64,000 nucleotides of DNA from Planctomycetota bacterium (GTDB taxonomy: Bacteria; Planctomycetota; GCA-002687715; CAIWVZ01), in assembly GCA_044222185.1 (NCBI GenBank), contig JBGANV010000013.1, positions 1 through 64,000 on the forward strand, given 5' to 3'. A program made the position numbers and the translations under genes. The notes beneath the pieces were generated by a model that did no database searches, was not told the DNA's origin, and was given only the letters and a program-made list of their open reading frames with translations. Of the stretch, positions 7,245 to 40,890 are shown in pieces. Each line of letters begins with the position of its first letter. Position 1 is the first letter of the stretch.

Positions 7245-7692
7245 GCAATCCTCGGCTATTTGTGGGCAATGGGCGCGCGCGCGCCCGGGAAGATCTTACA
7301 CGCCGTCGGAATGTGTGGAGTTGTGAATTCCGAACCCCACCGCACCGAACTGGGGCAGTTCGAAAATGCGCTCGCATCGCATTCTCACGACGCCGCCGCG
7401 TCGTTCGTCGCGGACCGAGGTCCTGCGCACGCGGCCGAGCCATCTTCGGCGTGCGGTCCCTCGATCGCCCCCCCCCGAAGTGGAAGATCATCCGCCCTTG
7501 CAATGTCCGGGGTCGGCATGTCCAGATCCGGCGCGATGGCGTCGAACACTGCCGCTGACCATCCTCCTACGCTCGAAGCACGCCACTGCGTCCGCCCGCG
7601 GTCAGTGGCGAGCGAAATCTACGTCGTCGCCTTCACGGCGCGCGACAGTCAGCGATCGCACTGCGACGCGCCGCGATCGATCTAATACCCCG

Positions 7693-8232
7693 TCACGGGA
7701 AGATGAAGCTCGCAACGTTTGACAAGGTGATCGTCATTCCGTTGCAGTTGATGGTGCCACCGCCGCTCATGCTGCCGCTTCCCATTCCACCTCCGCCCAT
7801 CGTACCGCCGCCGGTCATGCCACCACCGTTCATCCCGCCGCCAGTCATGCCTCCGCCACCCATGGTGGTCTGCATCGTGACGACACCAGCCTGCGTGTAG
7901 GCCGTCGTTCCAGACAACGGATTCGGCAGCGACGCCGGATTGACGTTCACGACCAACGTCAACGCACCGTTGCTGTTCGTGGTTCCCATGTCCATGAAGA
8001 ACCAAGGTGTAGCGATACCGAGGGTGATGCCGCCCATCGTGCCCGGACCCTGGTTGAGCGACCCGGCGAGGATGACGTGCGAGTTGGCCGCTGCGTTCGT
8101 CACGCTGAGTGTGATGGTCGGCGGAGCCGGCGTGGTCGTCGCAACTGCGGACAGAGCCGGAACCTGCGCACTGACGATTCCGACCATGGCGACAAGCACG
8201 ATGAAGATCACGGCGAGTTTTGAATTAGGCAT
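7693..8232 (-). CDS. Secreted protein with a Met/Gly-repeat loop
   Basis: Signal peptide; GGGMT/GGGMN repeats; strong RBS (GGGAGA). Confidence 0.8.
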   Translation of the reverse strand: MPNSKLAVIFIVLVAMVGIVSAQVPALSAVATTTPAPPTITLSVTNAAANSHVILAGSLNQGPGTMGGITLGIATPWFFMDMGTTNSNGALTLVVNVNPASLPNPLSGTTAYTQAGVVTMQTTMGGGGMTGGGMNGGGMTGGGTMGGGGMGSGSMSGGGTINCNGMTITLSNVASFIFP

Positions 8233-8283
8233 ATGAAATCTCCCGAACGAGGACGGCGATTGAAGGCAATTCTAGGGGAGCAC

Positions 8284-8300
8284 TGCCAAGAGAATGCCAA
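8284..8300 (-). promoter_or_regulatory. Candidate sigma-54 promoter
   Basis: TTGGCATTCTCTTGGCA fits GG-N10-GC and lies ~50 bp upstream of the 8232 start codon. Confidence 0.5.
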
Positions 8301-8650
8301 CGCGTCGCGGACTGAACGATTGCCCCTTGTTCGTACGACGGCCATGAAACCAAGCGCATCCGAGCGACGCCCAAGAACGCCACTTGGATTCAATCGCAGT
8401 CCATGCACCAGCGGCTCTATGTCACGACCTCGAACCTCCACGCCCCGCTCAACTTCCCGAACCTCCTCCAGAATAGTCAGCGATCTTGACGCGCGGTCTC
8501 ACTCGGATCGAAGCTGCGTGAGACGGGACAACGCCGTTGGAGACCAACTCATCCTGAGCAGTGCGGCGCCGCGGTCGCTCATCCGGGCAACGGCTCTCCC
8601 TCCGCAGGTATGAGTATCGCGAAACCCCTGTTGGTGGGTTCCAGATAGAC

Positions 8651-10123
8651 TCATCGGCCCATCACAGCACTTCCAGTCGGCGGCGGACCACTCATTCCAC
8701 CGCGTCCCCCCGTCGGCCCCCCAGACCGTTGCGTCGGCATGGTACCGCGAACCGCCATCCGCCCAGGGGTCAATGTTTCGACGTCTAACGCCGACCACGT
8801 CTCGATTGCAGCAAGCGCCTTTTCGCGCTCCGCTTTCACCTGCGACAGAGTGAGCCGCGCGTCGAGGAGTGTGCGCTGGGCATCAAGTATCTCCAGAAAA
8901 CCCGTGCGATTCGCGGCGTACGACGTAAGCGCAATCGACACGGTTTGCTCTGACCGTGGAACGACCGTTCCCTCGAACAGCGTGATCTGGCGCTCGTCGT
9001 TCCGCAGGACCGCGAGGTTGAGAACAAAGCTCGCCGCCAAGTCGTACGCGTATTGTCGGCGCGCCAATTCCGCCGCATTCAGATTCGCTCGTGCTTGGTC
9101 GACAGCGCCCTGAATGGCCGCGAGGCGCGTCGGGAGGATAATCATGCCGCCGAGGGTCTGTGTGACCGTCCCGAGCAGGTTGAACGACAAGGAGAAGTCT
9201 GGAAGGTCACCCTGCTGCGCGAGATCGACCGAACGCACGCGACCTGCGACATCGCGCGCAAGGGCCGAGAGTTCGGGACTGCGCTCAGACCCAAGTCGGA
9301 TGAGCTCCGCGTCTTCGACGGATAGCAGCCGAGGCTTAGGCATCGCCGAGGGCAGCGCCACGGGCGCGTCTGGCGACCTCCCCAGGAGGGCATTCATCTT
9401 GGCGATAAGCCCCGCCGCCTGCGCACGCTGGGTCGCAAGCGTGTTCTGGGCGAGATCCAAATCGGTCTGCGCGCGGAGCAGTTCCTGTTGGCCCGCACTG
9501 CCGTTCTGCACGCGAGCGGAAGTCTGGGCGACGATTTGCCGCATCAGCGCGACGCCCTCTGCACCGATTCGGATCGTTTCGCCGAGGAGTGCAAGATCCA
9601 CGTATGTCGCGAGCACCCGTCCTTGCAACTGGAACTTCGCAGCCTCGAATCGCAGCCCTGCGGCGCGGGCCGCCTCAAGCGCGATTTCGCCCGCCGCCGC
9701 GACCTTCGACGGGAACGGAATGTTGGTCATCGGGTCGTTCGTGATCCCGAGAGTCGTCCGGTCCCACGCCTTCACGTTTTCCGAACTGAACATGTAGGAG
9801 AACGGCACGGCGGCATTCGGAAAGCTCGATGACTGCGGGACCTGCTCAATGGCCGAGCGCCACTCCCAGTAGCGGGACTGGAGTTCAGCGTTCGAGAGAA
9901 GCGCATATCGGAGGTAGACATCCGGCTCCGGGTCTCCAGATAGGTCCGGCAGCGCGGCTTCTTCCATCAGCGTCCTGCCGGCCTCTTCCGCGCGGGCACG
10001 CTCATCGTCCTCTCCCATCGGCCGGATCGCACAGCCGGCGAACTGGGCAAGCAGCGTGATGGCGAGCGACGCGAAAAAGCGCGTGCGGCCGCCGCACTGG
10101 GTCATGACACTCATCGCATGCAT
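8651..10123 (-). CDS. TolC/CusC-type outer membrane factor (lipoprotein)
   Basis: FAGC lipobox, OEP repeats, directly downstream of the RND pump. Confidence 0.88.
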   Translation of the reverse strand: MHAMSVMTQCGGRTRFFASLAITLLAQFAGCAIRPMGEDDERARAEEAGRTLMEEAALPDLSGDPEPDVYLRYALLSNAELQSRYWEWRSAIEQVPQSSSFPNAAVPFSYMFSSENVKAWDRTTLGITNDPMTNIPFPSKVAAAGEIALEAARAAGLRFEAAKFQLQGRVLATYVDLALLGETIRIGAEGVALMRQIVAQTSARVQNGSAGQQELLRAQTDLDLAQNTLATQRAQAAGLIAKMNALLGRSPDAPVALPSAMPKPRLLSVEDAELIRLGSERSPELSALARDVAGRVRSVDLAQQGDLPDFSLSFNLLGTVTQTLGGMIILPTRLAAIQGAVDQARANLNAAELARRQYAYDLAASFVLNLAVLRNDERQITLFEGTVVPRSEQTVSIALTSYAANRTGFLEILDAQRTLLDARLTLSQVKAEREKALAAIETWSALDVETLTPGRMAVRGTMPTQRSGGPTGGRGGMSGPPPTGSAVMGR

Positions 10124-10138
10124 GAGATCGCCTCCGGG

Positions 10139-13100
10139 TCAATGTCCCCTCAGCACGGGGATCGCAAGCTGCGCCGGCTCGACAGTCCCCCTCTTCATCT
10201 CGAAGCGCCACTTCCAAACGGCGTAGATCGCTGGATACACCATGAGTTCGAGCAAGAAGCTCGTGATGAGCCCGCCCATGAGAGGTGCGGCTACGCGCTT
10301 CATCATGTCGGCGCCGGTCTCTTGCGACCACATGATCGGAAGCAGGCCGATGAATGCGCACGCAACCGTCATCAGCTTGGGGCGGACGCGCTTCACGGCG
10401 CCGTGGACGATGGCTTCCGTGAGATCCTTGAAACTCCGCATCTTCCCTTCTCTGACGGCCTCTGCATACGCCAGGTCGAGGAACAGAAGCATGAACACGC
10501 CGGTCTCGGCGTCGAGCCCCATCAGCGCGATGATTCCCACTCCGACCGCGATGGACATCTGGTAGCCGAGGATCTTCAGGAGCCAGAGTGCTCCAATCGC
10601 CGAAAATGGAACCGCAAGCATCACGATCCCAGCCTTCACGAGTGACTTCGTGTTCATGTAGAGGATGACGAAGATCAGAAAGAGGGTGATAGGCACGACG
10701 ATCGTCATCCGCTCCTTGACTCGCAGCATGTTCTCGTATTGGCCGCTCCAGGCGAGTGAGTAGCCGCTGGGAACATCGAGACTGCGGTTGACGGATTCCT
10801 TCGCCCGCGCGACGTAGCCACCGATGTCGCTCGCCGCCGTGTCCACGTACACGTAGCCGACGAGAAGGCCGTTCTCGTCGCGAAGCATCGCCGGCCCTTC
10901 GACGAGCTTGATGTCCGCGAGTTCGCCGAGTGGAATCTGTGCTCCTGACATGGTTGGGACGAGGACCCGGTTCAACTCTGGGATGTCGTCCCGGAGCTCG
11001 CGCGCATAGCGAACGCTGACCGTGTACCGCTCGCGTCCCTCCACCGTCGTCGTGACCGGCTCGCCGCCGATCGAAGACATGATGACCATCTCCGCCTCTT
11101 GCACGGTGATTCCGTACCGCGCAAGTCGATCTCGCTTCAGTTCGAAGTCAAGGAAGTACCCGCCCCCTGTCCGCTCAGCGAAAACGCTACGGGTCCCTGG
11201 AACATCCTTGAGGATCGTCTCGATCCGGATCCCAATATCCTCGATCGTCTTGACATCGGCACCAAAGACCTTGATGCCAATTGGGGTCCGGACTCCGGTC
11301 GTGAGCATGTCGATCCGTGTCTTGATCGGCATCGTCCATGCGTTTGTCACGCCGGGAAATTGCATCTTCGAATTGATCTCGGCGATCAACTCGTCCTTGT
11401 CAATGTGCTCCGGCCAGATGTGCCCAAGGGGCGCACGAACCCAGGCAGGTAGCTCCGAATGCCACCGGCGCTTGCTGCGCCACTCCGAGGGTGGCCGCAG
11501 CAAGATCGTCGTTTCCATCATCGAGAACGGAGCAGGGTCGGTTGACGTCTCGGCTCGTCCGGCCTTGCCGAACACCCGCTTGACCTCAGGTACCGTCATC
11601 AAGACCTGGTCCATCCGAGCCATGAGATCCTGCGCGGCCGTCACCGAGAGCCCCGGAAAGGTCGTGGGCATGTAGAGCATGTCGCCCTCCCACAAGGGAG
11701 GCATGAACTCGGAGCCGAGCTTTTCGAACGCACTCGATCGCGAAGAAAGGAACGGCAGGTCGACGACGAGCGGCACCGCCGTGAGTGTGAGGATCACTGC
11801 AATTCCGATCGTCAGGGCCCGATGCTTGATGACGAATCGGCACGGCTTTTCATAGAGCGCAAAGAGCAGGCGGCTGATCGGATGCCGTTCCTCCGCGTAG
11901 TACCGGCCCGCCGTGACCTGGTTGTAGATCCATGCAAGCGGTCGCGGTCTGAAGCGCAACCAATCCATGCGCGTGAAGAGCATTCGAATCGCCGGATCCA
12001 GCGTGATCGCAAGGATCGCGGCCATCGCCATCGTCAGGTTCTTCGTCAGCGCAAGCGGTTTGAAGAGCCGGCCCTCCTGCTCTTCGAGCGCGAAGATGGG
12101 CATGAACCCAACGGCAATCACCAAGAGCGAGAAGAAGACAGAAGGCCCAACCTCCTTGAGCGCGCGCAGACGGACCTCGTGGTAGTCGCCGATGCGCCCC
12201 CCCGCATCCCAAAGCTGGAGCTTCTTGTAGGCGTTTTCAACCTCCACGATCGCGCCGTCGACGAGGATCCCGATCGAGATTGTGATCCCCGAGATGGACA
12301 TGATGTTTGAGGAGACGCCCATCAGGTACATCGGGATGAACGCCAGGATCACCGAGATCGGGATCGTGATGATCGGAACGATGGCTGACGGTATGTGCCA
12401 GAGGAAGATCAAGATCACGATGCTGACGACGATGAGGGCCTGAATCAGTTCGCTTGTAAGTGTGTCGATGGAGCTTCGAATGAGCTCCGAGCGGTCGTAT
12501 GTCGTGACGAGTTCGACCCCCGGCGGAAGCGAACCCTTCACGGATTCGAGTTTCTCCCGGATGCGGTCAATGACAGCCAGCGCGTTCTCCCCGTGGCGCA
12601 TCACGACGATCCCGCCGACGGTGTCGCCGATGCCGTCGAGGTCGGCAATCCCACGCCGGATCTCCGGGCCGAGGGTCACGCGAGCGATGTTGCGGACGAG
12701 AATCGGTGTCCCGTTCGAGTCCGTCGCGACGGCGATGCCCTCAATGTCCCCAACAGACTTGGCGTAACCGCGGCCGCGCACCATGTACTCTGCGCCGCTG
12801 AACTCGACGAGGCGGCCGCCGACATCGTTGTTGCCCTTGCGGATCGCATCTACGACTGCCGGGAGCGAAACGTTGTGAGCGAGGAGGGCCGTCGGGTCGA
12901 CGCTGATCTGATACTGCTTCTGGAATCCGCCAATCGATGCGACCTCTGCAACGCCCGGCACGGACTGAATCCAGTAGCGAAGGTACCAGTCCTGGAACGT
13001 GCGGAGCTCCGCGAGACTCTGCCGGCCGGTCCGATCTACAAGTGCGTATTGGTAGACCCACCCAACCGCACTTGCATCGGGTCCAAGCTCAGTCTTCACT

Positions 13101-13468
13101 CCCTCCGGAAGTCGCGGCGTGATCTTGCTCAAGTACTCGAGCGTGCGGCTGCGCGCCCAGTAGAGGTCCGTCCCGTCCTGGAAGATCACGTAGACGTACG
13201 AGAACCCGAAGTCCGAAAACCCCCGGATCGCTTTCACCCTCGGCGCACCCAACAGCGCGGTCACGATTGGGTAGGTGACCTGATCTTCGATGATGTCCGG
13301 GCTGCGGTCCCACCTCGAGTAGATGATCACCTGCGTGTCGGACAGATCGGGGATCGCGTCGAGCGGAACGTGGGCCACACAGTAGATCCCGATTGCGACA
13401 CCGACGGCCGCGAGAATGAGCACGAGGAACTTGTTGTGCGCGCAAAATCCGATGATCCGTTCGATCAT
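10139..13468 (-). CDS. cusA: CusA/SilA-type heavy-metal RND permease
   Basis: PLDAIPDLSDTQVII, EDQVTYP, GSEFMPPLWEG, DPAPFSMMET and RVRPKLMT motifs; 1109 aa. Confidence 0.95.
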   Translation of the reverse strand: MIERIIGFCAHNKFLVLILAAVGVAIGIYCVAHVPLDAIPDLSDTQVIIYSRWDRSPDIIEDQVTYPIVTALLGAPRVKAIRGFSDFGFSYVYVIFQDGTDLYWARSRTLEYLSKITPRLPEGVKTELGPDASAVGWVYQYALVDRTGRQSLAELRTFQDWYLRYWIQSVPGVAEVASIGGFQKQYQISVDPTALLAHNVSLPAVVDAIRKGNNDVGGRLVEFSGAEYMVRGRGYAKSVGDIEGIAVATDSNGTPILVRNIARVTLGPEIRRGIADLDGIGDTVGGIVVMRHGENALAVIDRIREKLESVKGSLPPGVELVTTYDRSELIRSSIDTLTSELIQALIVVSIVILIFLWHIPSAIVPIITIPISVILAFIPMYLMGVSSNIMSISGITISIGILVDGAIVEVENAYKKLQLWDAGGRIGDYHEVRLRALKEVGPSVFFSLLVIAVGFMPIFALEEQEGRLFKPLALTKNLTMAMAAILAITLDPAIRMLFTRMDWLRFRPRPLAWIYNQVTAGRYYAEERHPISRLLFALYEKPCRFVIKHRALTIGIAVILTLTAVPLVVDLPFLSSRSSAFEKLGSEFMPPLWEGDMLYMPTTFPGLSVTAAQDLMARMDQVLMTVPEVKRVFGKAGRAETSTDPAPFSMMETTILLRPPSEWRSKRRWHSELPAWVRAPLGHIWPEHIDKDELIAEINSKMQFPGVTNAWTMPIKTRIDMLTTGVRTPIGIKVFGADVKTIEDIGIRIETILKDVPGTRSVFAERTGGGYFLDFELKRDRLARYGITVQEAEMVIMSSIGGEPVTTTVEGRERYTVSVRYARELRDDIPELNRVLVPTMSGAQIPLGELADIKLVEGPAMLRDENGLLVGYVYVDTAASDIGGYVARAKESVNRSLDVPSGYSLAWSGQYENMLRVKERMTIVVPITLFLIFVILYMNTKSLVKAGIVMLAVPFSAIGALWLLKILGYQMSIAVGVGIIALMGLDAETGVFMLLFLDLAYAEAVREGKMRSFKDLTEAIVHGAVKRVRPKLMTVACAFIGLLPIMWSQETGADMMKRVAAPLMGGLITSFLLELMVYPAIYAVWKWRFEMKRGTVEPAQLAIPVLRGH

Positions 13469-13505
13469 GCCATCGCTCCGCGGTCCGGCTCTACCCGTCG
13501 AGTCG

Positions 13506-14999
13506 TCATCGACCTTGTCCTCCGTGCCCCTCGTGCCCGCCCGCTTCCTTCGCTCCCGAGCCTCCTCCCGATATGAGCGCCGCCTTCAGTCTGCTCTCGG
13601 AATCAATCAGGAACGTCGCGGTCGTCACAACGCTCTCGCCCTCGACAAGCCCAGATTTCACGACCCGACGTCCGCCGATGGCTGCCCCGAGCGTCAGCTC
13701 TCTGGGTTCGAAGCGGCCATTCCCTGTGTCGACGAATGCAATCTGGCGCGTGCCGCTGTCGAGAATGGCGCCGTCGTCGACGATGAGCTGTTCACCAAGG
13801 TCGACGGCGATCATTACGTTTCCGTAGGTACCGGGACGCAAGACGCCACCCGGGTTTGGGACTTCGATCCTCGCTCGCACCGTCCGCGTGGATTCGTTCA
13901 GGTAGGGGTACACGTAGCTCACCGTTCCCGAGAATTGATTCTCAGGTGACGTCGCAAGTGTCACGACAGCGGATTGCCCTACCGCAACTTCCGCCACCTC
14001 GTTCTGGTAGATGTCCGCGAGCACCCAGACCGTCGAGAGTTCCGCAGTCTCAAAGAGATTCGTGCCAGGCTGTATGGCGGCACCCTTCACCACGTTTCGG
14101 CGCGTAACGACTCCGTCGACTTTCGACGTGATCGTGACCCTCGTTTCGGGCTTCTTTGTGGCTGAGAGCGCGTCAATTTGTTCGGGCGTGAAGTCCCAAA
14201 GCAGGAGACGCTCACGTGCACTCTGTAGACTCTCTCGCGCGAACGACGTGTCACGCTCGCCACCCGACGCTCCCGCAAGCGCGACGATGAAGCTCCGCTC
14301 GGCCTCGAGAACTTCGGGGCTATAAACGATCATCACTGGATCGCCCTTTCGAACCGACTGACCCGTCGACTTGACGTACAAGTCTTCGACCCATCCTCCG
14401 AACTTGAGGTTTACGGCCGCGAGTCGCGTTTCGTCGTAATCGATTCGCCCGACGACGCGCAGCGATTTCGACACTCGCGTCCGTTCAACCCTGCCGAACC
14501 TGACACCGATGAGCTGCTGGCGATCAGGATGGATTGTCGTGATGGCGTGGCCTGGCACTGAGGATGGCGCGGGTACCTCGCCCTCCTGCATCGGCACGAG
14601 TGTCATGTTGCAGATGGGACACTCACCCGGACGATCGGACTGGTAGCTCGGGTGCATGGGGCAGTAGTAGCGGATCGGGTGGCCTACGCCCGGACGCGTT
14701 TCCTGCGCGCTGTGACCCGCTGCTTGGGACGCCGCTGGCACGTCGTGCCCGGCATGGCTCGCTCCCGTCTCCATCGGCAGACTCCGGGAAGCCGGAACAA
14801 GATCCATTCCACACTTGGGACATCGGCCGGGGCGGTCGGATTGCACCTCAGCATCCTCCGGCATGGGGCATACGTAGATCGTGCTTGTGTGTGTCCACGG
14901 CGGGAGCCGCACGAGTCCTCCCGGCACGATGAAGTGTGCGCCGATCGCGAGGACGAAGATGATGCCAAGCAGCTTGAGAAGGGCGGACAGGATCTTCAT
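13506..14999 (-). CDS. cusB: CusB-type periplasmic adaptor with two heavy-metal-binding (CPM..CPxCxM) domains
   Basis: YVCPMP..GRCPKCGMDL, YYCPMHP..GECPICNMTL and FLIDSESRL. Confidence 0.92.
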   Translation of the reverse strand: MKILSALLKLLGIIFVLAIGAHFIVPGGLVRLPPWTHTSTIYVCPMPEDAEVQSDRPGRCPKCGMDLVPASRSLPMETGASHAGHDVPAASQAAGHSAQETRPGVGHPIRYYCPMHPSYQSDRPGECPICNMTLVPMQEGEVPAPSSVPGHAITTIHPDRQQLIGVRFGRVERTRVSKSLRVVGRIDYDETRLAAVNLKFGGWVEDLYVKSTGQSVRKGDPVMIVYSPEVLEAERSFIVALAGASGGERDTSFARESLQSARERLLLWDFTPEQIDALSATKKPETRVTITSKVDGVVTRRNVVKGAAIQPGTNLFETAELSTVWVLADIYQNEVAEVAVGQSAVVTLATSPENQFSGTVSYVYPYLNESTRTVRARIEVPNPGGVLRPGTYGNVMIAVDLGEQLIVDDGAILDSGTRQIAFVDTGNGRFEPRELTLGAAIGGRRVVKSGLVEGESVVTTATFLIDSESRLKAALISGGGSGAKEAGGHEGHGGQGR

Positions 15000-15057
15000 G
15001 GCGTTCCTTCGTGTGACTCGCACTCGACCGCTCCGGGGCGTTGTCGGGCCTCGGCGA

Positions 15058-28027: not shown

Positions 28028-28124
28028 ATGTCTCCTGCGTCGTCCTGACCCGCTCGCTCCATGGTTCATGTTCTGGTTCCTCATCGCGGCGCTATGCCTC
28101 GCCTACGGGATCGCGAAGCGGTGA
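28020..28124 (+). CDS. 34-aa single-TM peptide
   Basis: MHRCLLRRPDPLAPWFMFWFLIAALCLAYGIAKR; overlaps both neighbours; RBS GGAGG. Confidence 0.45.
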   Translation: MHRCLLRRPDPLAPWFMFWFLIAALCLAYGIAKR

Positions 28125-28627
28125 AGCGGAAGCTCCCATCGAGCGCGTTCGACGCGTACGTCAGCCTGGGCGCGGCCCGCAGCTACGAGGCCGTCGCCCG
28201 GCAGTTCGGCGTCACGAAGCGCGCCGTGACGGCGTGCGCTGAACGCGAGGACTGGCAGGGTCGACTCGCGGACGCCCACGAGAAGGCCCGGGTCGAGAGC
28301 GATCGCAAGGCCGCGGACGAACTCGTCGCCATGAACGCGCGGCACGATGGGATCGCTGGCGCGATCGAGACCGCCGTCGTGAAGTTGATGCGGGAGCTGG
28401 GCAACGAAGCCACGATGGCCGACCTGCGAATGGCCGCCCTAACGATCGAGGCGACACAGCGGGTGAGACGGACTTCGCGCGGGCTCGATGACGCGGCACG
28501 TCTCGCGCAGGCGGCGGAGCCGGCCGCTCCCCTTCCGCCCCGGATCATCGAGTGGCGGCTGATGACGCCCGAGCGGATCGCGGAGGAGCGTGCCAAGCAC
28601 CGGGTGCCCGCCGAACGGTCCGGGTAG
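28121..28627 (+). CDS. Small-terminase-like HTH plus coiled-coil protein (TerS-like 1)
   Basis: AFDAYVSLGAARSYEAVARQFGV..WQGR; follows the ParB-MTase as in phage packaging modules. Confidence 0.65.
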   Translation: MKRKLPSSAFDAYVSLGAARSYEAVARQFGVTKRAVTACAEREDWQGRLADAHEKARVESDRKAADELVAMNARHDGIAGAIETAVVKLMRELGNEATMADLRMAALTIEATQRVRRTSRGLDDAARLAQAAEPAAPLPPRIIEWRLMTPERIAEERAKHRVPAERSG

Positions 28628-28658: not shown

Positions 28659-28708
28659 CTTCTTCGTCGTCGCCTCCCCCCTACAGGAGACGCCTAACGG
28701 CGAAGAAG
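28659..28708. repeat. ~50-bp palindromic element, copy A
   Basis: CTTCTTCGTCG..CCCCCCTACAGGAG..CGGCGAAGAAG. Confidence 0.8.
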
Positions 28709-28725
28709 CCCCCCTCCGGGCGTCC

Positions 28726-28809
28726 TCAACTCACCGCCGCCCTGACCCGCTCCCGATCCACCCGCGCAACGACCAGCGTCGAGGTGATCGATCGGTGGTG
28801 AATCGCGGC
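28726..28809 (-). pseudogene. Remnant 3' end of a tyrosine recombinase
   Basis: Translates AAIHHRSITSTLVVARVDRERVRAAVS*, versus AALRHRSITSTLVYARVDRERVRAAVS* at 29734-29817. Confidence 0.88.
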
Positions 28810-28811
28810 GT

Positions 28812-29597
28812 CTACGCGCCCTTCTCAAAGCACTCCCACCCGTCCGTTTCATCAACTACGTCGTCGATCAGCTTGTAGGTGTACTCGTTCGGCGTGCCTG
28901 GAGCACTGGAAAAGGCCGCCTCGATGCTTGGAACGGAGAACCGTTGCGCGTCCAGGAGCCTCGCCTGACACATCCCGACCGCGCGGTCACGATGCTCGAC
29001 GAGGTGGAACTCAACCGCGGTGGTGACGAACTCATTCCACACATCAGACTTGGTCAATCGGATCGTGGAGATGGCCCGCGCGAGATACCCGCTGAGTTGT
29101 GCCGTCGTGATCCTTCCGACCGCCGCCAGCGTCGCGAGCGTACGAAGACAGACTGCGCGCGATGCGCCGCGAAGGCCCTCCTGCTCGGCAAACGCCATCA
29201 GGCCGTCTGCGTCGCCGTCAAAGGTCGAGGCGAGCACGGAATGCAGGGAATAGTCGCCCAGCCGGTCGGTGAGGCAGTAGAGCGTCTCCGGGTCGAACCG
29301 AAGGAAGTCGAGAGCCATGGTGTGCGCGCGCACCTCCCGGAACTTGGCGAGGAGGACCAGCGCGAGGCCGGCGCCCTGGAACTCCCCGTCCGAGACGAAC
29401 GGACGCCAATCCGCAAGGACGGCGCGGAGGGTCGCGAGGAGGGAACGAACAAGCTGCTCGCCCATCGCTTCCGCCCGTCGAAGCTGCGCGACTGGGCGAA
29501 CACCCCCGCACCACGCGATCTCCTTCCAGAGCGCGGTGGCCGCGCGCTGTGGGATGACGGGCAGGTTTCGAGACGAGGTGGACGATCGGCGTGCCAA
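28812..29597 (-). CDS. DUF1186-like protein (no SEC-C tail)
   Basis: LVLLAKFREVRAH, VLASTFDGD and LIDDVVDETDGWECF; TTG start inferred from RBS GGAGAGG. Confidence 0.65.
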   Translation of the reverse strand: MARRSSTSSRNLPVIPQRAATALWKEIAWCGGVRPVAQLRRAEAMGEQLVRSLLATLRAVLADWRPFVSDGEFQGAGLALVLLAKFREVRAHTMALDFLRFDPETLYCLTDRLGDYSLHSVLASTFDGDADGLMAFAEQEGLRGASRAVCLRTLATLAAVGRITTAQLSGYLARAISTIRLTKSDVWNEFVTTAVEFHLVEHRDRAVGMCQARLLDAQRFSVPSIEAAFSSAPGTPNEYTYKLIDDVVDETDGWECFEKGA

Positions 29598-29655
29598 TGG
29601 CCTCTCCGGTGGCCGGCGATCATACTCCGACTCACCGAAGCCGAATGACGGCTGA

Positions 29656-29704
29656 GTTCTTCTTCGTCGCTTCCCCCTATAGGAGAGGGGCGACGGCGAA
29701 GAAG
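29656..29704. repeat. ~50-bp palindromic element, copy B
   Basis: TTCTTCTTCGTCGCTTCCCCCTATAGGAGAGGGGCGACGGCGAAGAAG. Confidence 0.8.
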
Positions 29705-29733
29705 TCCCCCCACAGACTTCAGGCGCGGGAACC

Positions 29734-30609
29734 TCAGCTGACCGCCGCCCTGACCCGCTCCCGATCGACCCGCGCGTAGACGAGCGTGCTCGTGATCGAC
29801 CGATGCCGAAGGGCAGCCTGGACGACCGCGATGTCCCCCGTCCGGCGAAGCAACGCGGTCGCGAACGTGTGGCGACAGCTGTGCGGCGAGGCCGGTCGGT
29901 TGACTCCGGCCTTCGCGAGCCACTCGCAGAACCGACGGTGCACGTGGCGCGTCGTGATCCGCTCGCTGCCGCGACCTGCAAACAGCGGCCCGGTCGTGCG
30001 GTTCCCGAGGTACTCGCGGAGCAGGTCCCGAGTCGCGGCCGGCATGAACACGACCTCGGGCCTGCTGCCCTTGGCCGACCGGATCTGGATCTCGCAACGG
30101 TCCAGGTCGAGGTCCTCGACGTCGAGCGCGACGGCGGATCCGACCCGTATCCCGGTCGTGAGGAGGACCGTGACGAGGACGCGGTCCCGCCGCCCCTCGG
30201 GGTTGGTGTCAGCTGCCAGCGCGGCAAGGATGCGCTGCTGGTCGTCCTCCGCGATCGTCTTCGGCGGCGCCACTCCGCACAGTGCCCGTCGGACCAGCCG
30301 CGCTGGGTTCTGCGCGATCGCCCCTGCCTCGTGCAGGTAGCGGAAGAACACGCGGAGCGAGGTCCGCATGGCGTTCATGGAGAGCGGACACTTGCTCCCG
30401 CCACCCGCTCTCGCCCGCGCCTCGGGGGCGGCCAGGAAGCGCGCGACGGACTCGTGGCCGATCGTCGCAATGTCGTCCGGCTGGTCGGTGGATGCGAGCC
30501 ACCGCCGGAACGCACCAACGTGGCGGCGGTACTGGCCGATCGTGTGCGGCGATCGGCCATCGGCATCGAGTTGGACAAGGAACCGATCGAGGGCGTCTTG
30601 GAGGTTCAT
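29734..30609 (-). CDS. Xer-like tyrosine recombinase, catalytically intact
   Basis: TGIR, SAKG, HSCRH, LRH and TLVY supply the R-K-H-R-H-Y residues. Confidence 0.93.
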   Translation of the reverse strand: MNLQDALDRFLVQLDADGRSPHTIGQYRRHVGAFRRWLASTDQPDDIATIGHESVARFLAAPEARARAGGGSKCPLSMNAMRTSLRVFFRYLHEAGAIAQNPARLVRRALCGVAPPKTIAEDDQQRILAALAADTNPEGRRDRVLVTVLLTTGIRVGSAVALDVEDLDLDRCEIQIRSAKGSRPEVVFMPAATRDLLREYLGNRTTGPLFAGRGSERITTRHVHRRFCEWLAKAGVNRPASPHSCRHTFATALLRRTGDIAVVQAALRHRSITSTLVYARVDRERVRAAVS

Positions 30610-31357: not shown

Positions 31358-31858
31358 CTACCCGGTGGTAGCGGTCCCTCCGAATTTGGGTGGCATCCAG
31401 GGCGAAAGCTCGGCACGTCGCTGTTCCGCCGCGATCCGCGCGTCCTCAGCATCCGCCTCCTCCATGAGGCGCGCGATCGTGGAGATGGTGACCTGTCCGT
31501 CGGGCCCCTTGCGCAGCGTCCGCTCCGACTCCATGACGACGGTCAACGCCCGCATCAGCGGGGCCGCAGCGGAGGTCGGCGCGGTCCGCAACGCATCGAG
31601 CGCCTTGCGCTGGAGCGCCTGCAGGACCTTCAGGTGGCGCTCGTTCATCTGGTCGAGCGTCTCGACGGCGCGCTTGTCGGCATTCTCGCGGGCCTGCCGT
31701 TCGCGGTCAGCGATGCGCTCCTGCCAACGTTCCTTCGCGGCGCGGGCAGCCACGGCCTTCTTCGACGTCGCGTACTGCTGCGAGACCCGGGTGTAGCTGC
31801 GACCGACGCCGAGGCTGAAGTAATACTCGAACGCGTCCGACGGGAGGCGGCGGGTCAT
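31358..31858 (-). CDS. TerS-like HTH protein 2 (paralogue of 28121-28627)
   Basis: RRLPSDAFEYYFSLGVGRSY..WQER..MNERH. Confidence 0.7.
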   Translation of the reverse strand: MTRRLPSDAFEYYFSLGVGRSYTRVSQQYATSKKAVAARAAKERWQERIADRERQARENADKRAVETLDQMNERHLKVLQALQRKALDALRTAPTSAAAPLMRALTVVMESERTLRKGPDGQVTISTIARLMEEADAEDARIAAEQRRAELSPWMPPKFGGTATTG

Positions 31859-32553: not shown

Positions 32554-33066
32554 TTACGCCGATGGCGATTGCGGTTGCGCGGATGACTCCGGACGCTCGG
32601 CAATGACCAGCCGAACGATGCGGGACGCCGCAGGCATCGCGGCCAGGTTCGGCGTCGCCTCCGCGCTCGACGGGACATCCGCGTCCGCTGCCGTTCGCCG
32701 GATTCGTTGAGCCGACTCGACCGCGAGCGCCAGGGCTCGGATGTCACGTGCGCTCAGCCCGCGACCACCGCCCGACGACGCGCTCCGCAGGTAGCGCAGG
32801 ATCATGGCTTCGATGGTCTCACCGAGTTGGTCGTGCCGGGCGTTCAGCTTCGCAACGTGCCCCCGGCTGCGCTCCCGATCCGCGAACTCCACCTTCGCGT
32901 CGATCAGGCGCTTCAGGTCCTCCCATGCGCCCTCGCGGCGCCACTCTCGGACCGTGTTCGTCCTCGTCACGCCACACGCCTGCGCGATCGCCTCGTCCGT
33001 CATCTTGCCGTCAAGCCATAGGTCCCGTGCACGATCGCGCACGGTTGCGGGATAGGGCTCAGTCAT
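32554..33066 (-). CDS. TerS-like HTH protein 3
   Basis: RDRARDLWLDG..EAIAQACGV..TVREWRREGAW. LNARHD and AVESAQRIRR are shared with TerS-like 1. Confidence 0.65.
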   Translation of the reverse strand: MTEPYPATVRDRARDLWLDGKMTDEAIAQACGVTRTNTVREWRREGAWEDLKRLIDAKVEFADRERSRGHVAKLNARHDQLGETIEAMILRYLRSASSGGGRGLSARDIRALALAVESAQRIRRTAADADVPSSAEATPNLAAMPAASRIVRLVIAERPESSAQPQSPSA

Positions 33067-33202
33067 GGTTGTTCCCCGCTCCTTGCGGGTGACCCCGATC
33101 GTAGGAGGGGGGTGTCGCGATCTGCGCTTCCCGCCCACGGCAGTTGCGCGGCGGCCGGCGTCGCACCCCAGGCCGTGGAACCTGTGCGCGGCGGCCCAAC
33201 CC

Positions 33203-33637
33203 TCAGGTGGGCAGCGCCGGGACCCCGAGTGGCGGGGGCACGGTCGCTCGCATCTGCGCGAGTGCTTCCCTCACCGACTGCGCGAACTCCTGAGGGTCCT
33301 GACGCTCGACCGGCTCGATACGGACCTTCCGCCCCCATCGGTCCGGGCACTTCCGCTCAAGCCGCCAGGCTGCAGCCTGCCACTGCGTCTGTGCGGCCTT
33401 CCCGATGATGAGCAGGTCGCGCAGCTCAGCTTGCGCCAGCGCCCTTTCTACTGCGTCCGAGAACTCGCGAAACCGTGTCCCGTCACCCCGCGCGCCGCGA
33501 CGCAGCCATGCGTAGAGCGTGTCTTTCGAGATGCCGGCCGCAGCTGCCGCGGTCTCGATGTAGGCGCCAGCGTGGATGTACTCGACGATCTTCGACTGGA
33601 TCGCGGGTGTGAGCTTGCAGGGACGGCCGGTCAACAT
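33203..33637 (-). CDS. TerS-like HTH protein 4 (distinct family)
   Basis: GRPCKLTP..GAYIETAAAAAGISKDTLYAWL..WQAAAWRLERKCPDRWG. Confidence 0.75.
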   Translation of the reverse strand: MLTGRPCKLTPAIQSKIVEYIHAGAYIETAAAAAGISKDTLYAWLRRGARGDGTRFREFSDAVERALAQAELRDLLIIGKAAQTQWQAAAWRLERKCPDRWGRKVRIEPVERQDPQEFAQSVREALAQMRATVPPPLGVPALPT

Positions 33638-33814
33638 TCGGGTGCTCCGCGTTGAAATGTACTCGTAGGCCGAACGCTTGGTGGCGGCACCAAGCAGACC
33701 ACGCCTCACGCCGTCTATCGGGGCCGCCGGACGGCCAGAACGAGACAGGTTCGGCGCGGCTGCAACCGTTACGTCTGTTTGGTGTACGATCCGCCGGCCC
33801 AAGGAGAACCCGGC

Positions 33815-34591
33815 GTGGGGCACAGCAGGCTCTCGAATCTTCCGAGAACGCGGTGGTGGAATGAAGTCGTCGAGCTAATCGCTCAGGGCGGCTCCGTTGC
33901 TGACGTGGCTGAGAAGACCCTCGATGCTGCACTCGACGGCTTCTCAGCCGCGGCAAACGATCGAGGCGTCATCCAGGCGTGCTGGCTTCTCATGCAAGTT
34001 CCCCTGATTGCGCAGGGAGAGGACGGGCTTGAGCGGCTTGCTGAGATCGGGATCCGCCTCCCAACGGACGCGAGCCCGACGGACCTCGCTGCTGCCCTCA
34101 CGGACGCTGCCGACGAATACCATCACGTCAGCCGTTCGCGGTCAGACCTTGGGGAGATGGCCGAACTCGCCCTCGTTGAGTCGTTCCATTCCGCTCTCTG
34201 GGAGGAGAATGCCACTCTTTTTGGCCCGAGTGCGGCTGACCTGCGCGTTGCGTTGAAGAGGCTCGGCTCTCAGCGGTCATTCCAATCGTTGACTCGAACC
34301 TTCTTCGCCAATCTCACCAAACGATTCCTCTCATACTTCCTCAGCCGGACCCTCTCGAATCATGTAGGCCCAGAGAAGCGATTCCATTCGATTAATGAGA
34401 GGCTCGCGTTCGACGAGGCCCTCGGCATTCACTGCTGGGAAGCCTCACGGATCGTCGAATCGTACGCGAGCGAATGGCGCGCCAAGATGGCGTACCACGT
34501 AGGGCACCTGAACCCCGAAGACGTGGTCGGGTTCCTGAAGAAATCGACGAAGAAGCTGGCGGCGGAGCTTGTGCGCCGCGGTGCCCCATGA
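33815..34591 (+). CDS. Helical hypothetical protein, QatB-like partner of QueC (starts M-G-H)
   Basis: RBS AAGGAG 8 nt before GTG; MGHSRLSNLPRTRWWNEVVELI; ATGA-coupled to the QueC-like gene. Confidence 0.7.
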   Translation: MGHSRLSNLPRTRWWNEVVELIAQGGSVADVAEKTLDAALDGFSAAANDRGVIQACWLLMQVPLIAQGEDGLERLAEIGIRLPTDASPTDLAAALTDAADEYHHVSRSRSDLGEMAELALVESFHSALWEENATLFGPSAADLRVALKRLGSQRSFQSLTRTFFANLTKRFLSYFLSRTLSNHVGPEKRFHSINERLAFDEALGIHCWEASRIVESYASEWRAKMAYHVGHLNPEDVVGFLKKSTKKLAAELVRRGAP

Positions 34592-36294
34592 CCGCGCGTC
34601 ACCGAATCGTCTGCGGGGCGGTGCCATCAATCGCGGCACATGCGAGTTCCAAGCGCCTGCGCTTCGTCATGGAGGGTCGAAATGCCAACATTCGCCTCGA
34701 GATCGACGCGATTAGCGACCGTCTGGTCAAGTGCATCCCGACGAGGTTCTTAGACCTACTGGAGGTCGCATCATACGTGTTTGCCGCAGACCAAGCGTGT
34801 ACGAGAGGTGGAGCCGGTGTCGACAACGTCGGCGCTCGTTGGCGACGCGACTTCGAGTTCCACATCGCTGTTCGCGACGCGGACTTCTGGAAAAGCGACG
34901 AGACATGCCGGGCACTTGAGGAGACGCTCGGCTTTCTCTCAGACGACAACTACAGTTTCGCGTTCTACCCGCTGACAGGTGAGCGGGTGGAACCAGGCTA
35001 TTTTCAACTGGATGACGCAGGTCTCAGGCCTGGTGTTCCGGACTGCGTGATGCTGTTCTCCGGCGGTCTCGACTCACTCGCGGGCGCAGTCCAAGAGTCC
35101 CTCGTCGATAAGCGTCGGGCGGTGATGGTCAGCCACGTTTCAAATCCTGTCTATCGGTTGCAGCAGCGTAGGTTGATCGACGGCCTTCGCGGCCGGGGCG
35201 CCGTTCCATTCCACGTTCCGGTCGAATTGAATACAGCGTATGCACAAGAGGACTCGCAACGGACCCGAGCATTCCTGTACGTGTCCCTTGCGGCGGCGGT
35301 GGCAAGGGGCCTCAACATCGACACGGTGCGCTTCTACGAGAATGGCGTGACGAGCCTGAATCTACCATTCTCCGCCCAACTCATAGGCGCCAGGGCCAGC
35401 CGGACGACTCATCCGAAGGCGCTGCGTGGATTCACGCTCCTCCTGGGCCTCGTCTCCGGGCAAAAAATGTCCGTCGAGAACCCGTTCATATGGGAAACGA
35501 AGACGGACATCGTTCGCCGCATTGACATGGGGTCCTGTCGCGAGCTGATCGAGCATGCGATCAGTTGTAGCCACCCGCGCTTGCGCAGCAACAGCAAAAC
35601 GCACTGTGGAGTATGCATGCAATGCATCGAACGGCGGTTCGCCATTTTGGCGGCTGGCCTCGATGAGGCTGATCCAGAAAGCAAGTACCGAGTCGCGCTC
35701 CTTCTCGGACCGCGGAAGGAAGGCAAAGACCGGACAATGGCGGAATCCATCGTCGCCAGAGCGCAACGCGTTGCAACAAGCTCCCGGGAGAGTTTCGTTG
35801 CGGCATTCCCCGAGGTCGCCCGGGCGCTCCGCGCCTTCGTCGGCCGGACCGAGGAAATTGTCGACCGGATCTGGGATCTCTACCGGCGAAACGCGCAAGA
35901 CATCATGGGAGTCCTCTCGGATGGGCTGAAAGCGCACGCGGACGAGTTCGTTGCGAAGCAGATCGACCGCACGTGTCTGTTGATGCTCGCTGGCGGGTTC
36001 GGCGAAGATGCGAGCTTACGCGGCCGGGTGAGCAGCGCCGCGAAACTGGCAACCGCGGTGGTCGCGATAGCGGCACCGGAGAACCAAGGCGTCCCCGTCG
36101 CGGAGTTGGCGCGGCGCACGAAGATCCCGCGATCGTTCTTCTACGAGAACCCCGCAATCAATCGGTTGAGGCAGGAGCAGAAGGGGCGTGCGTTTCAGTT
36201 CCGCGCTGAGCGTTCGGAGAGCCCGTCGCGCCCGTCGCGGAACCATGGACAATCAGTCCAAGGCGACGACGCACCCGACAGCGACGATTCCTAA
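34588..36294 (+). CDS. Long QueC-family (QatC/Cap9-like) PP-loop enzyme with a C-terminal HTH
   Basis: FSGGLDS, SQRTRAFL, YENG, RTTHP, ENPF, CSHP..HCGVCMQCIERR; C-terminal VAELARRTKIPRSFFY. Confidence 0.85.
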   Translation: MTARHRIVCGAVPSIAAHASSKRLRFVMEGRNANIRLEIDAISDRLVKCIPTRFLDLLEVASYVFAADQACTRGGAGVDNVGARWRRDFEFHIAVRDADFWKSDETCRALEETLGFLSDDNYSFAFYPLTGERVEPGYFQLDDAGLRPGVPDCVMLFSGGLDSLAGAVQESLVDKRRAVMVSHVSNPVYRLQQRRLIDGLRGRGAVPFHVPVELNTAYAQEDSQRTRAFLYVSLAAAVARGLNIDTVRFYENGVTSLNLPFSAQLIGARASRTTHPKALRGFTLLLGLVSGQKMSVENPFIWETKTDIVRRIDMGSCRELIEHAISCSHPRLRSNSKTHCGVCMQCIERRFAILAAGLDEADPESKYRVALLLGPRKEGKDRTMAESIVARAQRVATSSRESFVAAFPEVARALRAFVGRTEEIVDRIWDLYRRNAQDIMGVLSDGLKAHADEFVAKQIDRTCLLMLAGGFGEDASLRGRVSSAAKLATAVVAIAAPENQGVPVAELARRTKIPRSFFYENPAINRLRQEQKGRAFQFRAERSESPSRPSRNHGQSVQGDDAPDSDDS

Positions 36295-36401
36295 GTTCAA
36301 GCGAGCCAACGGCCGCCGTATTCGTCGACCCGACAGGTAGTCAACAAGTTCGGGTCCGGTCCAGAGCCTTGGGCGTTGATGCCCAGCTCCAAGGACCCGA
36401 G

Positions 36402-38291
36402 ATGCTCGATCCTCTGCACCTTGTCGAACTCCATCGTTCTGGCCTTTCCGACGACGCTATCGCTCGCTCCCGCATTCACTCCGCCGACGCCGACACAGCC
36501 GCCGCCCTCGTTGGCATCCCGTGTGGCTCCGCGATGGTGATCCCATACCCGGACGCGAGGCTCGGAAACGGGTCACCTTTCTGCCGTGTGAAGCCAGACG
36601 CGCCCAAGCCGGATCGCAACGGGAAGACGGCGAAGTACCTCTCGCCGACCCGCGCGTTGAATCCCGAGGGCAATCGGCTCTACTTCCCCCCGAATCTCGA
36701 CTCCGACGTTCTCGCGGACGCGTCGACCCCGATCCTGATCACAGAGGGTGAGAAGAAGGCTCTCAAGGCGACGCAAGAGGGCGTGCCGTGCCTCGGACTC
36801 GCCGGCGTCTACGCCTGGAAGAAGCGCGACGAGGACGACCAGTCCCAACCGATCGCCGACCTCTACAAGGTGCAGTGGCGCGGACGCCTTGTCGGCATCG
36901 TCTTCGACTCCGACGCGGCGTTCAACGACCTCGTGAAGGCCGCCGAGAAGGCCCTCCGAGATGAGTTGCGCCGCCGCGGCGCCCGGGTCTACATCATTCG
37001 GCTCCCCGAGCCGACCTTCGAGGAAGCCAAGGTCTACGGCTCGAAACTCGGCCTTGACGACTTCCTGTGTGCCCGCGGGGCGGATGCGTTCGGCGAACTC
37101 ATGGTGGCGTCGGCTGAGACGCTCCCGCTGGGCGCGAAGTCTGCTCGAGTCCTCATGGCGGAGGCCGACCCTGAGGAACCGGAGCTGATCCAGGGGCTTT
37201 GGCCCGAGGCCGGCTGCGGCTTCTTCGCTGGCGAGCCGAAGACGAAGAAGTCGTTCCTTTCCCTGGCCCTCGCGTACTGCGTCGCGACCGGCACGCCGTT
37301 TCTTGGACGAGCCGTACGCAAGGGCACAGTCGTCATCGTTGACGAAGAGAACGACCGACGCGAGCTGAAGAAGCGCATGCGGCGCGTCGCCGCGGGCCTG
37401 GGGGTTCCTGCCGACCTGGACGCGATCATCGTGGCAGCACCATCCGTCCTCAAGCTCGACAACCCAGACGCGATGAAGGAGCTTAGGGCGCTCCTCGATG
37501 AAGTGAAGCCCGCCCTGGTCGTTCTCGACCCACTCGTCCGCCTGCACCAGGGTGACGAGAACGAGGCGATGACCGTTGCGCCGATGCTCGCCGACGTGCG
37601 ACGGGCGTCACGACACTTTCGGTGCTCCGTCATCGTTGTGCACCACCTGAGGAAGAAGGCCGAGGGGACGAAGGCCAGCCATGGGCAACGGATGCGCGGC
37701 AGCAGCGACCTGCACGGTTGGCTCGACGCCGCGGTCTACTTCGAGAAAGGGTCCGACGATCTCATCAAGTTGACGTTCGAGACCCGCTACTGCGTTCCGC
37801 CCGACCCGATGTACGTGCAGCTCACGGACGGGGCGGACTCCGTGCGCTGGGAGCGAGTCGAGAAGTCGGACGAGGCGGGCGAGGAAGCTGAGCCGCTCGG
37901 GGCGATCCGACGGGTCCTTGAGGTGGCGGAGGTGCCGATCACTCGCGAGGAGCTTCGGATTGCGACCGGGCTCAGCGACAAGAGGCTCAAGGCTGGGATC
38001 ACGAGCCTCGTGGCGGCCAATCTCGCACTCATCGGGTCGCGCCCCACAGGCGGCAAGCCCGCGACGACCTTCTGGTTGAGGAGCCGCGGAGCGCCGGCCA
38101 CTTATTCGCCTTCCGGCTCCCCCTTAGAGGGGGGAACGACGGCGAAGAAGTCAGATGCATCGCCGGCAGATCCGTCGGAGGCCGGCGAACTTCTTCGCCG
38201 TCCTTCACCCCCTAAGGACGATCGCGGCGACGAAGAAGGGGTGCCCCCCGCAGACGCGACCGCGGACGAGGCGATGGGGGGTGATCCATGA
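36402..38291 (+). CDS. DUF3854 (Toprim) plus AAA_25 primase-helicase
   Basis: ITEGEKKA, VFDSD and GLDDFL; Walker A GEPKTKKS, VLDP, VHHLRK and RGSSDL; C-terminal wHTH. Confidence 0.88.
   Translation: MLDPLHLVELHRSGLSDDAIARSRIHSADADTAAALVGIPCGSAMVIPYPDARLGNGSPFCRVKPDAPKPDRNGKTAKYLSPTRALNPEGNRLYFPPNLDSDVLADASTPILITEGEKKALKATQEGVPCLGLAGVYAWKKRDEDDQSQPIADLYKVQWRGRLVGIVFDSDAAFNDLVKAAEKALRDELRRRGARVYIIRLPEPTFEEAKVYGSKLGLDDFLCARGADAFGELMVASAETLPLGAKSARVLMAEADPEEPELIQGLWPEAGCGFFAGEPKTKKSFLSLALAYCVATGTPFLGRAVRKGTVVIVDEENDRRELKKRMRRVAAGLGVPADLDAIIVAAPSVLKLDNPDAMKELRALLDEVKPALVVLDPLVRLHQGDENEAMTVAPMLADVRRASRHFRCSVIVVHHLRKKAEGTKASHGQRMRGSSDLHGWLDAAVYFEKGSDDLIKLTFETRYCVPPDPMYVQLTDGADSVRWERVEKSDEAGEEAEPLGAIRRVLEVAEVPITREELRIATGLSDKRLKAGITSLVAANLALIGSRPTGGKPATTFWLRSRGAPATYSPSGSPLEGGTTAKKSDASPADPSEAGELLRRPSPPKDDRGDEEGVPPADATADEAMGGDP
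38101..38238. repeat. ~50-bp palindromic element, copies C (38101-38150) and D (38190-38238), inside the primase 3' end
   Basis: CTTATTCGCC..CCCCCTTAGAGGGGGG..CGGCGAAGAAG and CTTCTTCGCCG..CCCCCTAAGG..CGACGAAGAAG. Confidence 0.8.

Positions 38292-38956: not shown

Positions 38957-38960
<4 letters not shown>
38727..38960 (+). CDS. 77-aa hypothetical protein coupled to the recombinase
   Basis: ATGA overlaps with the SpoVG-like gene and the LSR. Confidence 0.5.

Positions 38961-40890
<1,930 letters not shown>

Follow-up and report, generated by a model that had tools for sequence, protein, structure and literature searches.

A 64,000-nt stretch of contig JBGANV010000013.1 from a Planctomycetota bacterium (GCA_044222185.1; the whole stretch is referred to as the window) carries two overlapping genes on the forward strand, A and B, with products P0001 and P0002. 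The two probably form a translationally coupled module, a natural QatBC-only form distantly related to the qatABCD defence system and carried as cargo on an element integrated at a tRNA-Met gene (Table 1). The product of gene A begins with (M)GHSRLSNLPRTRWW, and ~12 residues precede helix 1. An in-frame TTG at 33779 offers an alternative start that would add 12 residues, and we preferred the GTG at 33815 because homologues begin exactly at M-G-H. The stop codon of gene A and the start codon of gene B overlap in an ATGA at 34588. A longer open reading frame (ORF) for gene B is possible from 34474; alignments of homologues begin at residue 1 of the 568-aa product. The initial annotation of this DNA, made from its letters alone, had described a helical 258-aa M-G-H protein behind a ribosome binding site and ATGA-coupled to a 568-aa enzyme, and translation and homologue starts place both genes as it claimed.

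Table 1. Features of the A-B locus and of its surroundings in the window (positions count from the first letter of the window).
Feature	Position	Strand	Basis or remark
Shine-Dalgarno-like AAGGAG	33801..33806	+	8 nt 5' of the gene A GTG; read from sequence
Gene A (P0001), 258-aa QatB-like all-helical protein	33815..34591	+	GTG start, TGA stop at 34589-34591; translation
Gene B (P0002), 568 aa	34588..36294	+	ATG start; translation
Gene B core, residues 1-468: QatC-like N-extension, QueC-type PP-loop domain, C-extension helices	34588..35991	+	Model and homologue comparison
SGGLDS pyrophosphate-binding loop, B residues 158-163	35059..35076	+	Invariant in alignment
Four-Cys zinc motif, B C327, C340, C343, C346	35566..35625	+	Invariant; lines up with the Cys cluster of QatC chain 9vlk_A
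Gene B tail, residues 469-568 and stop codon	35992..36294	+	Helical at 475-543; 537-568 disordered, acidic, Ser/Pro-rich
Small helix-turn-helix (HTH)-type gene	33203-33823	-	Left neighbour of the pair
DUF3854 + AAA_25 primase/helicase-type gene	36369..38291	+	Pfam; 75 nt downstream of B
Large serine recombinase gene, 3' end overlapping the tRNA gene	38957..40858	+	Pfam Resolvase, Recombinase, Zn_ribbon_recom
tRNA-Met (CAT), integration site of the element	40818..40890	-	ARAGORN
Two rve-type transposase genes beside a copper-type cluster	1084-2418, 3244-4551, 5445-15023		Left part of the window

The pair had also been noted as richer in A/T than its flanks, and we found a G+C content of 0.60-0.61 across 34000-35999 versus 0.66-0.70 on either side. 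At third codon positions, the G+C content of the pair is 0.70-0.71 versus 0.77-0.88 for the neighbouring genes. Scans of 33400-36600 for sigma-70 promoters and intrinsic terminators returned 0 sites. A 198-nt contig from a sludge metatranscriptome library, the sole contig of its kind, is identical to positions 35226-35423 in gene B. DNA carry-over is possible, and we took this contig as a weak hint and did not count it as evidence of transcription. DNA pieces identical to the same positions were present at low depth in sludge metagenomes from two other studies; in contigs of such depth, stretches without cover are uninformative.

Gene B encodes a distant relative of QatC. The PADLOC QatC model matched residues 47-373 at 3.9e-52, and solved QatC chains were recovered by sequence (9vlk_A at 8.6e-30, 9zee_B at 2.1e-23), with an identity to canonical QatC of 25-32%. 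In a Foldseek search of the PDB with the AlphaFold2 (AF2) model of B (mean predicted local distance difference test score, pLDDT, 83.5), the best match was QatC chain 9y01_B (E 6.2e-19, template modelling score (TM) 0.77 on the target, 473 columns). QueC (1.6e-5) and Cap9 (9nto_B, 4.6e-4) matched in the central domain only. The architecture is that of a full QatC, with an N-extension, a PP-loop ATP pyrophosphatase domain that includes a Cys4 zinc site, and a C-extension.

We read residue conservation in B from a 49-member family alignment. The SGGLDS and zinc motifs that had been picked out initially are invariant in 49 of 49 sequences, with S158, G159, G160, D162 and S163 forming SGGxDS and C327, C340, C343 and C346 forming the zinc site. 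Also invariant are R225, R227, E251-N252-G253, N258, P260, R272, T274, P276, T304 and R349. In QatC, the threonine pair T278/T280 replaces the Tyr/Asp of QueC and Cap9, and the equivalent pair in B is S271/T273. Position 271 holds T in 41 of the 49 sequences and S in the other 8, so that the window protein has a conservative variant, and 47 of the 49 have T at position 273. Where QueC has its canonical substrate motifs, B carries replacements, as QatC does.

B resembles QueC (7-cyano-7-deazaguanine synthase) in its PP-loop Rossmann domain and zinc-binding Cys cluster. Public annotation of B homologues often says QueC, with models labelling the enzyme a queuosine biosynthesis protein and leaving its partner unnamed. 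We ruled out a housekeeping QueC. The TIGR00364 score of B is 25.4 bits versus a cut-off of 150.3, and only the last ~60 residues of the Pfam QueC model match. The host (7.08 Mb in 16 contigs, 93.8% complete) has its own QueC (contig C1, 178.8 bits), QueD (contig C2) and two TGT genes (contigs C15 and C1) elsewhere, which also argues that B is not the housekeeping enzyme. The initial annotation had likewise seen no TGT or queDEF gene near the pair, and had likened B to the long QueC paralogues of Qat and CBASS.

Gene A belongs to a well-defined family, with 88 word-indexed matches of ~259 aa. A profile of this family recovered 1,744 representative proteins at E ≤ 0.001, 1,279 at 1e-10 and 558 at 1e-30. 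Positions M1, G2, H3, R5, L6, L9, P10 and W15 are at least 90% conserved, and the family motif is MGH(I/V/T)RLGxLP(R/K)(T/S)RKW, which includes P10 and W15. The AF2 model (43 sequences; pLDDT 86, predicted TM 0.87) is all-helical, with helix 1 starting at residue 13. The top Foldseek match was QatB chain 9y01_A (E 0.047, probability 1.00, TM 0.53/0.62), and the others among the matches listed had a TM of at most 0.30. VIA-align superposed 209 of 215 residues on the same chain (Z 12.4, root-mean-square deviation 3.8), placing model residues 10-256 on chain residues 64-287, with A residue 10 at chain residue 64; the next, unrelated chain reached Z 5.1. In a control search of the model against 48,161 representative chains, 0 reached Z ≥8 and the best was 6.0. 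An all-helical model may reach such Z by chance, but the QatB match is at twice the background and extends over the whole domain. On this modelled structure, A has the ten-helix globular fold of QatB.

We predicted the complex of A with B residues 1-470 using custom alignments, for which benchmark counts hold only roughly. The interface score (ipSAE) was 0.91 in three of three runs, and the best of three controls scored 0.00; 58 of 80 solved complexes reached the mark used, as did 2 of 110 mismatched pairs. The runs shared at least 86% of contacts, with a partner pLDDT of at least 83. In the predicted complex, A residues 1-10 contact B residues 223, 251, 255, 258, 260-274, 328 and 344-345, together the invariant shell of the active site. 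The body of A (87-129 and 170-197) packs on residues 260-267 of the active-site loop of B (260-274) and on C-extension helices 378-425 and 461-470. A and B are thus predicted to form a 1:1 complex in which the first ten residues of A lie at the active site of B. With both folds matching solved chains and a confident predicted complex, the QatB/QatC-like pair proposed initially is borne out.

The two genes are kept together, without QatA or QatD, across many phyla. On genome contigs, taking one genome per species, we confirmed 171 stretches and examined the best 80. An A ORF was found in 79 of these and a same-strand B ORF directly downstream in 80 of 80. Gly follows the start codon in all 79 A genes (74 recognized by pattern and 5 by eye), the third residue is His in 77 of them, and the stop of A overlaps the start of B by 1-14 nt in 68 of 74 loci. 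Both the GTG start at 33815 and the importance that had been given to Gly2 are supported by these homologues. Among the top representative A matches, 129 of 148 begin with M/V-G, 116 of them with MGH, the rest being mostly fragments or proteins with wrongly called starts.

On viral contigs, A was carried by 20, of which 19 had B downstream. A separate B-centred viral search confirmed 202 stretches, and in the best 80 of these A lies upstream of B in 77, the other three starting at the edge of the locus. P0001 matched none of 50,697 GenBank phage records and only one of 72,556 plasmids, Leptospira noguchii plasmid NZ_CP091938.1. The pair is a real and conserved two-gene module, a variant of the Qat kind whose structure, partnership and distribution are supported in silico.

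On the L. noguchii plasmid (L094:4132-6776), genes of 260 aa and 621 aa overlap by 4 nt and adjoin an IS982 transposase; RefSeq labels both genes hypothetical. A further protein, P0301 (1,079 aa), is an in-frame A-B fusion with A at residues 4-250, B at 259-742 and then a long tail; it may be genuine or an artefact of sequencing.

The distribution bears on whether the pair is a functionless, decaying remnant of a qatABCD operon, as the missing QatA and QatD might suggest. Both frames are intact and joined by the ATGA overlap, the two-gene form recurs in the confirmed genome and viral stretches, the catalytic residues are invariant, and B is remote in sequence from canonical QatC. We consider decay hardly credible.

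Absence of the other Qat genes and of type IV CBASS (cyclic oligonucleotide-based antiphage signalling system) partners extends beyond the immediate surroundings of the pair. The genome gave 0 matches to KAP_NTPase (QatA) and 0 to SMODS (CD-NTase), TatD (the QatD family) was found only on two other contigs, C8 and C1, and no gene neighbouring the pair in the window has a KAP or TatD domain. The initial annotation had reported QatA, QatD and CD-NTase as absent nearby, which these searches uphold. In five related genomes with long contigs, KAP gave only weak P-loop matches, >80 kb away. For 104 flanking ORFs from 20 loci we tallied Pfam families and listed 25 of 85, those matched by at least two of the ORFs. 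KAP and TatD are not among the 25, and single occurrences are possible. Integrases (serine and tyrosine recombinases), helicases and primase domains are. Defence genes in the same 104 ORFs comprise four HmaA-like SNF2 helicases (PADLOC), one BrxL and one Cas3 (both Pfam).

Clustering of neighbours across the 80 genome loci found no third gene common to more than 22. The recurrent ones are a serine recombinase (22), a CHC2 primase-like gene that follows the pair in the same orientation (22), DUF2924 (15), a sigma-70-like gene (15), a tyrosine integrase (11) and AAA_24 (9). In the flanks on viral contigs, serine recombinases make up 14 of 127 ORFs, and DUF2924, AAA_24, methylase, Prim-Pol and RusA recur. 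At 11 of the 80 genome loci (e.g., L074:1146-4967), a helicase of ~1,100 aa with SNF2 and NO VEIN C-terminal (NOV_C) domains lies upstream, mostly on the opposite strand; ORFs similar to it match PADLOC HmaA at E 0.

The B family has a variable C-terminal module. All 119 of the 119 B homologues compared share residues 1-468 and then continue for 95-448 extra residues, and these tails fall into at least seven mutually unrelated groups. Among ten representative homologues scanned, Pfam named one tail, that of P0107, whose residues 502-597 match the predicted pPIWI-associating nuclease family PF18165 (E 6e-10). This match hints that some B tails may be nucleases. For the commonest homologue tail (P0096, 470-673), an Atlas look-up gave weak helical/TPR-like leads (score 0.83, TM 0.53-0.62), which we did not use.

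In the window protein, the initial annotation had described an extra C-terminal segment of HTH type. The extra segment is there and is variable between homologues. The HTH assignment fared less well, as the tail scores 20.8 bits against DUF6262 (cut-off 29) and E 0.046 against Rrf2 (residues 485-527), and we treat it as a weak lead. The modelled helices have a pLDDT of 49-69, within a range of 34-69 for the whole tail, which ends in the acidic disordered stretch. A search with residues 469-568 alone found only B itself, and a phmmer comparison with the small HTH proteins encoded on the island had no match below E 0.05, so that the tail is not tied to any family or neighbour.

Tail and neighbours together raise the question of whether the pair instead serves the mobile element, in replication, lysogeny, transfer or against host defences, with the ligase tail as a DNA-binding regulator. 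The pair lies just upstream of a same-strand primase-helicase gene, CHC2 primase-like genes and serine recombinases recur beside its homologues, serine recombinases are frequent in the viral flanks, and the tail is weakly HTH-similar, all of which would suit such a role. The tail is not conserved, however, so a regulatory function here cannot be a property of the family, and we found no evidence that the tail regulates the primase operon, as had been suggested. No third gene accompanies the pair at more than 22 of the 80 loci, which argues that the pair is exchanged as cargo among elements of different backbone. Moreover, the G+C content of the pair is unlike that of the element, and its nearest characterised relatives are defence proteins. 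We regard service to the element as unlikely.

Comparison with the solved QatB-QatC structures (PDB 9y01/9y02, 9vlk, 9zee) and with published work places the pair close to Qat; statements attributed here to papers hold for the parts of their text that were available. Like qatBC, the pair has a B-like gene followed by a C-like gene with overlapping stop and start. Its enzyme shares with QatC the SGGxDS motif, the Cys4 zinc site, a Thr/Ser-x-Thr active-site loop and N- and C-extensions, and its partner shares with QatB the helical fold and a Met-Gly that is predicted to reach into the active site. In the modelled complex, C-extension helices and the active-site loop make up the interface, as described for QatBC (PMC13279940). 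An engineered QatBC is enough on its own to protect E. coli from lambda-vir, and defence is lost with QatB G2D or with QatC active-site mutants (PMC13279940). QatB G2 contacts the alpha-phosphate of ATP, and the QatB N-terminus binds QatD (PMC13639016).

The differences are also clear. The pair lacks qatA (KAP NTPase) and qatD (TatD nuclease), and B always bears an extra variable tail that QatC does not have. Cap9-CdnD of type IV CBASS (PDB 9nto) offers a second parallel, as it too combines a QueC-family ATP-dependent enzyme with a partner whose N-terminal Gly is a proposed or shown acceptor. Cap9 is, in contrast, minimal (~185 aa versus 568 aa for B), keeps the canonical QueC substrate motifs and works with a CD-NTase partner and Cap10 (TGT family), whereas the pair has no SMODS in its genome and no TGT nearby. 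With its weak Cap9 fold match, B was ruled out as a Cap9-type CBASS enzyme.

In one survey, full qatABCD made up 98.1% (n = 619) of qat clusters (PMC13434339), and a qatBC-only form is not among the clusters in its available text; the supplementary tables of that paper and of PMC13329287 may hold such pairs. The latter reports qatA or qatD near only ~1/3 of QatC-cluster genes and leaves the remainder undescribed in the text available. A full-text literature search found no paper using the terms QatC-like or QatB-like.

In the mechanism of defence that we infer by analogy with QatBC and Cap9-CdnD, covering both the modification of Gly2 and the nature of the adduct, the initiator Met of A would be removed and Gly2 exposed, and a carboxylate would be activated by B at the expense of ATP. 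A candidate is 7-carboxy-7-deazaguanine, because QueC and QueD are both encoded by the host. B would join the carboxylate to the alpha-amine of Gly2 of A, and the modified A-B complex would restrict phage. The variable tail of B would be an exchangeable output or sensing part, here a unique helical segment that is possibly DNA-binding. Given that the N-terminus of QatB binds QatD, the short tail of A would fit a system without QatD.

A different chemistry, in which B modifies a small molecule or nucleic acid (e.g., a 7-deazaguanine derivative) and A is a scaffold or regulator and not the substrate, would accord with the QueC superfamily, whose members mostly act on small molecules (PMC13329287). 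It would also accord with the fact that QatC activity on QatB has not been reconstituted in the available text of PMC13279940 and PMC13639016. Met-Gly is nevertheless universal in the A genes examined, the predicted complex puts its first residues into the active site, and the canonical QueC substrate motifs have been replaced in the fashion of QatC. TGT/DpdA-type, QueD and QueE genes are neither beside the pair nor in the flank tallies shown (the genome was not searched for QueE). We judge this chemistry improbable, more so than service to the element.

Several observations weigh against the assignment of the pair as a QatBC-only defence module. P0001 matches nothing in PADLOC, NCBIfam or PDB sequences, nor in Pfam above noise (E ≤ 1 to 10). 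An hhalign comparison of the A family with four canonical QatB from plasmid qatABCD operons gave a probability of 16%, which is not significant, although it set the best-conserved motifs of the two families against each other (RTDLGEMAxxAAxES with GTIDEGIARDAMxES). Relatedness as initially proposed therefore stands for B by sequence and fold and for A by fold, and does not stand for A by sequence. The N-terminus of A also departs from QatB, with ~12 residues before helix 1 versus 30-90 disordered residues and an MGH...P10...W15 pattern versus MGTS...P16.W18; the QatB from the four plasmids show MGTS. B scores 187.9 bits against the NCBIfam QatC model (NF041925; 189 in the genome search), below the cut-off of 280, and is split into two ORFs in 5 of 80 genome loci. 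The fusion P0301 begins MHPVRFG and has no Gly2.

Likeness to solved QatBC may have inflated the complex score; as a counterpoint, A has no detectable sequence similarity to QatB. A role of the family in defence would be extrapolated from distant relatives. The initial annotation overstated the chemistry of these by giving QatC as reported to attach a deazaguanine, since the available text of PMC13279940 and PMC13639016 leaves the reaction and substrate of QatC unresolved. Finally, the pair is often found beside replication and recombination genes and may take part in the biology of the element.

Beyond the assignment of this pair to the Qat kind, which we hold to be probable, we put forward more tentatively that the family is a separate, widespread two-gene immune system of mobile elements. 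In such a system, a QatC-type ligase would mark Gly2 of a short-tailed partner with the QatB fold, and an exchangeable ligase tail would replace QatA and QatD as effector or sensor; one homologue has a tail of the pPIWI-associated nuclease type, and the tails of others are helical or HTH-like. The conserved His3 and the Ser/Thr active-site loop could indicate an adduct differing from the deazaguanine of CBASS. How QatBC restricts phage and what adduct QatC forms are left open in the Qat papers, as far as their available text goes (PMC13279940, PMC13639016), and the family is a natural experiment on both. It keeps the B-C core alone, trims the substrate tail to ~12 conserved residues and fuses varied tails to the enzyme, and so would be a simpler system for adduct mass spectrometry and for the output of the complex. 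The family would also add a sizeable group to the catalogue of defence genes, the A profile alone reaching 1,744 representative clusters.

The surroundings of the pair in the window indicate that it most likely travels as cargo on a mobile element, which is inserted at tRNA-Met. Three copies of the final ~480 nt of the serine recombinase gene, each followed by ~14 nt of the tRNA-Met 3' end, lie at 1-~485, 4716-~5200 and 40350-40831, with 95-97% identity over the first 300 nt, which points to repeated integrations at this tRNA gene. The element had been called a satellite. It has a tRNA-Met site, a serine recombinase and a primase-helicase, and as nothing marking a phage satellite was found, we dropped that label. 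The copper-type/RND cluster in the left part of the window consists of genes for a multicopper oxidase, an outer-membrane factor, an AcrB-type RND pump and a CusB-like fusion with heavy-metal-binding domains.

Three paralogous small proteins are encoded at 28061-28627 (+), 31358-31858 (-) and 32554-33138 (-). They share 32-35% identity over 104-136 residues, fall into no Pfam family with confidence and are scattered in the island around a tyrosine recombinase. A DUF1186 ORF (28812-29600) is flanked by repeats at 28676-28816 and 29672-29824, ~1 kb apart, which match over 35-93 nt with 77% identity. A third short copy of this repeat lies at 38118-38152, near the end of the primase gene.

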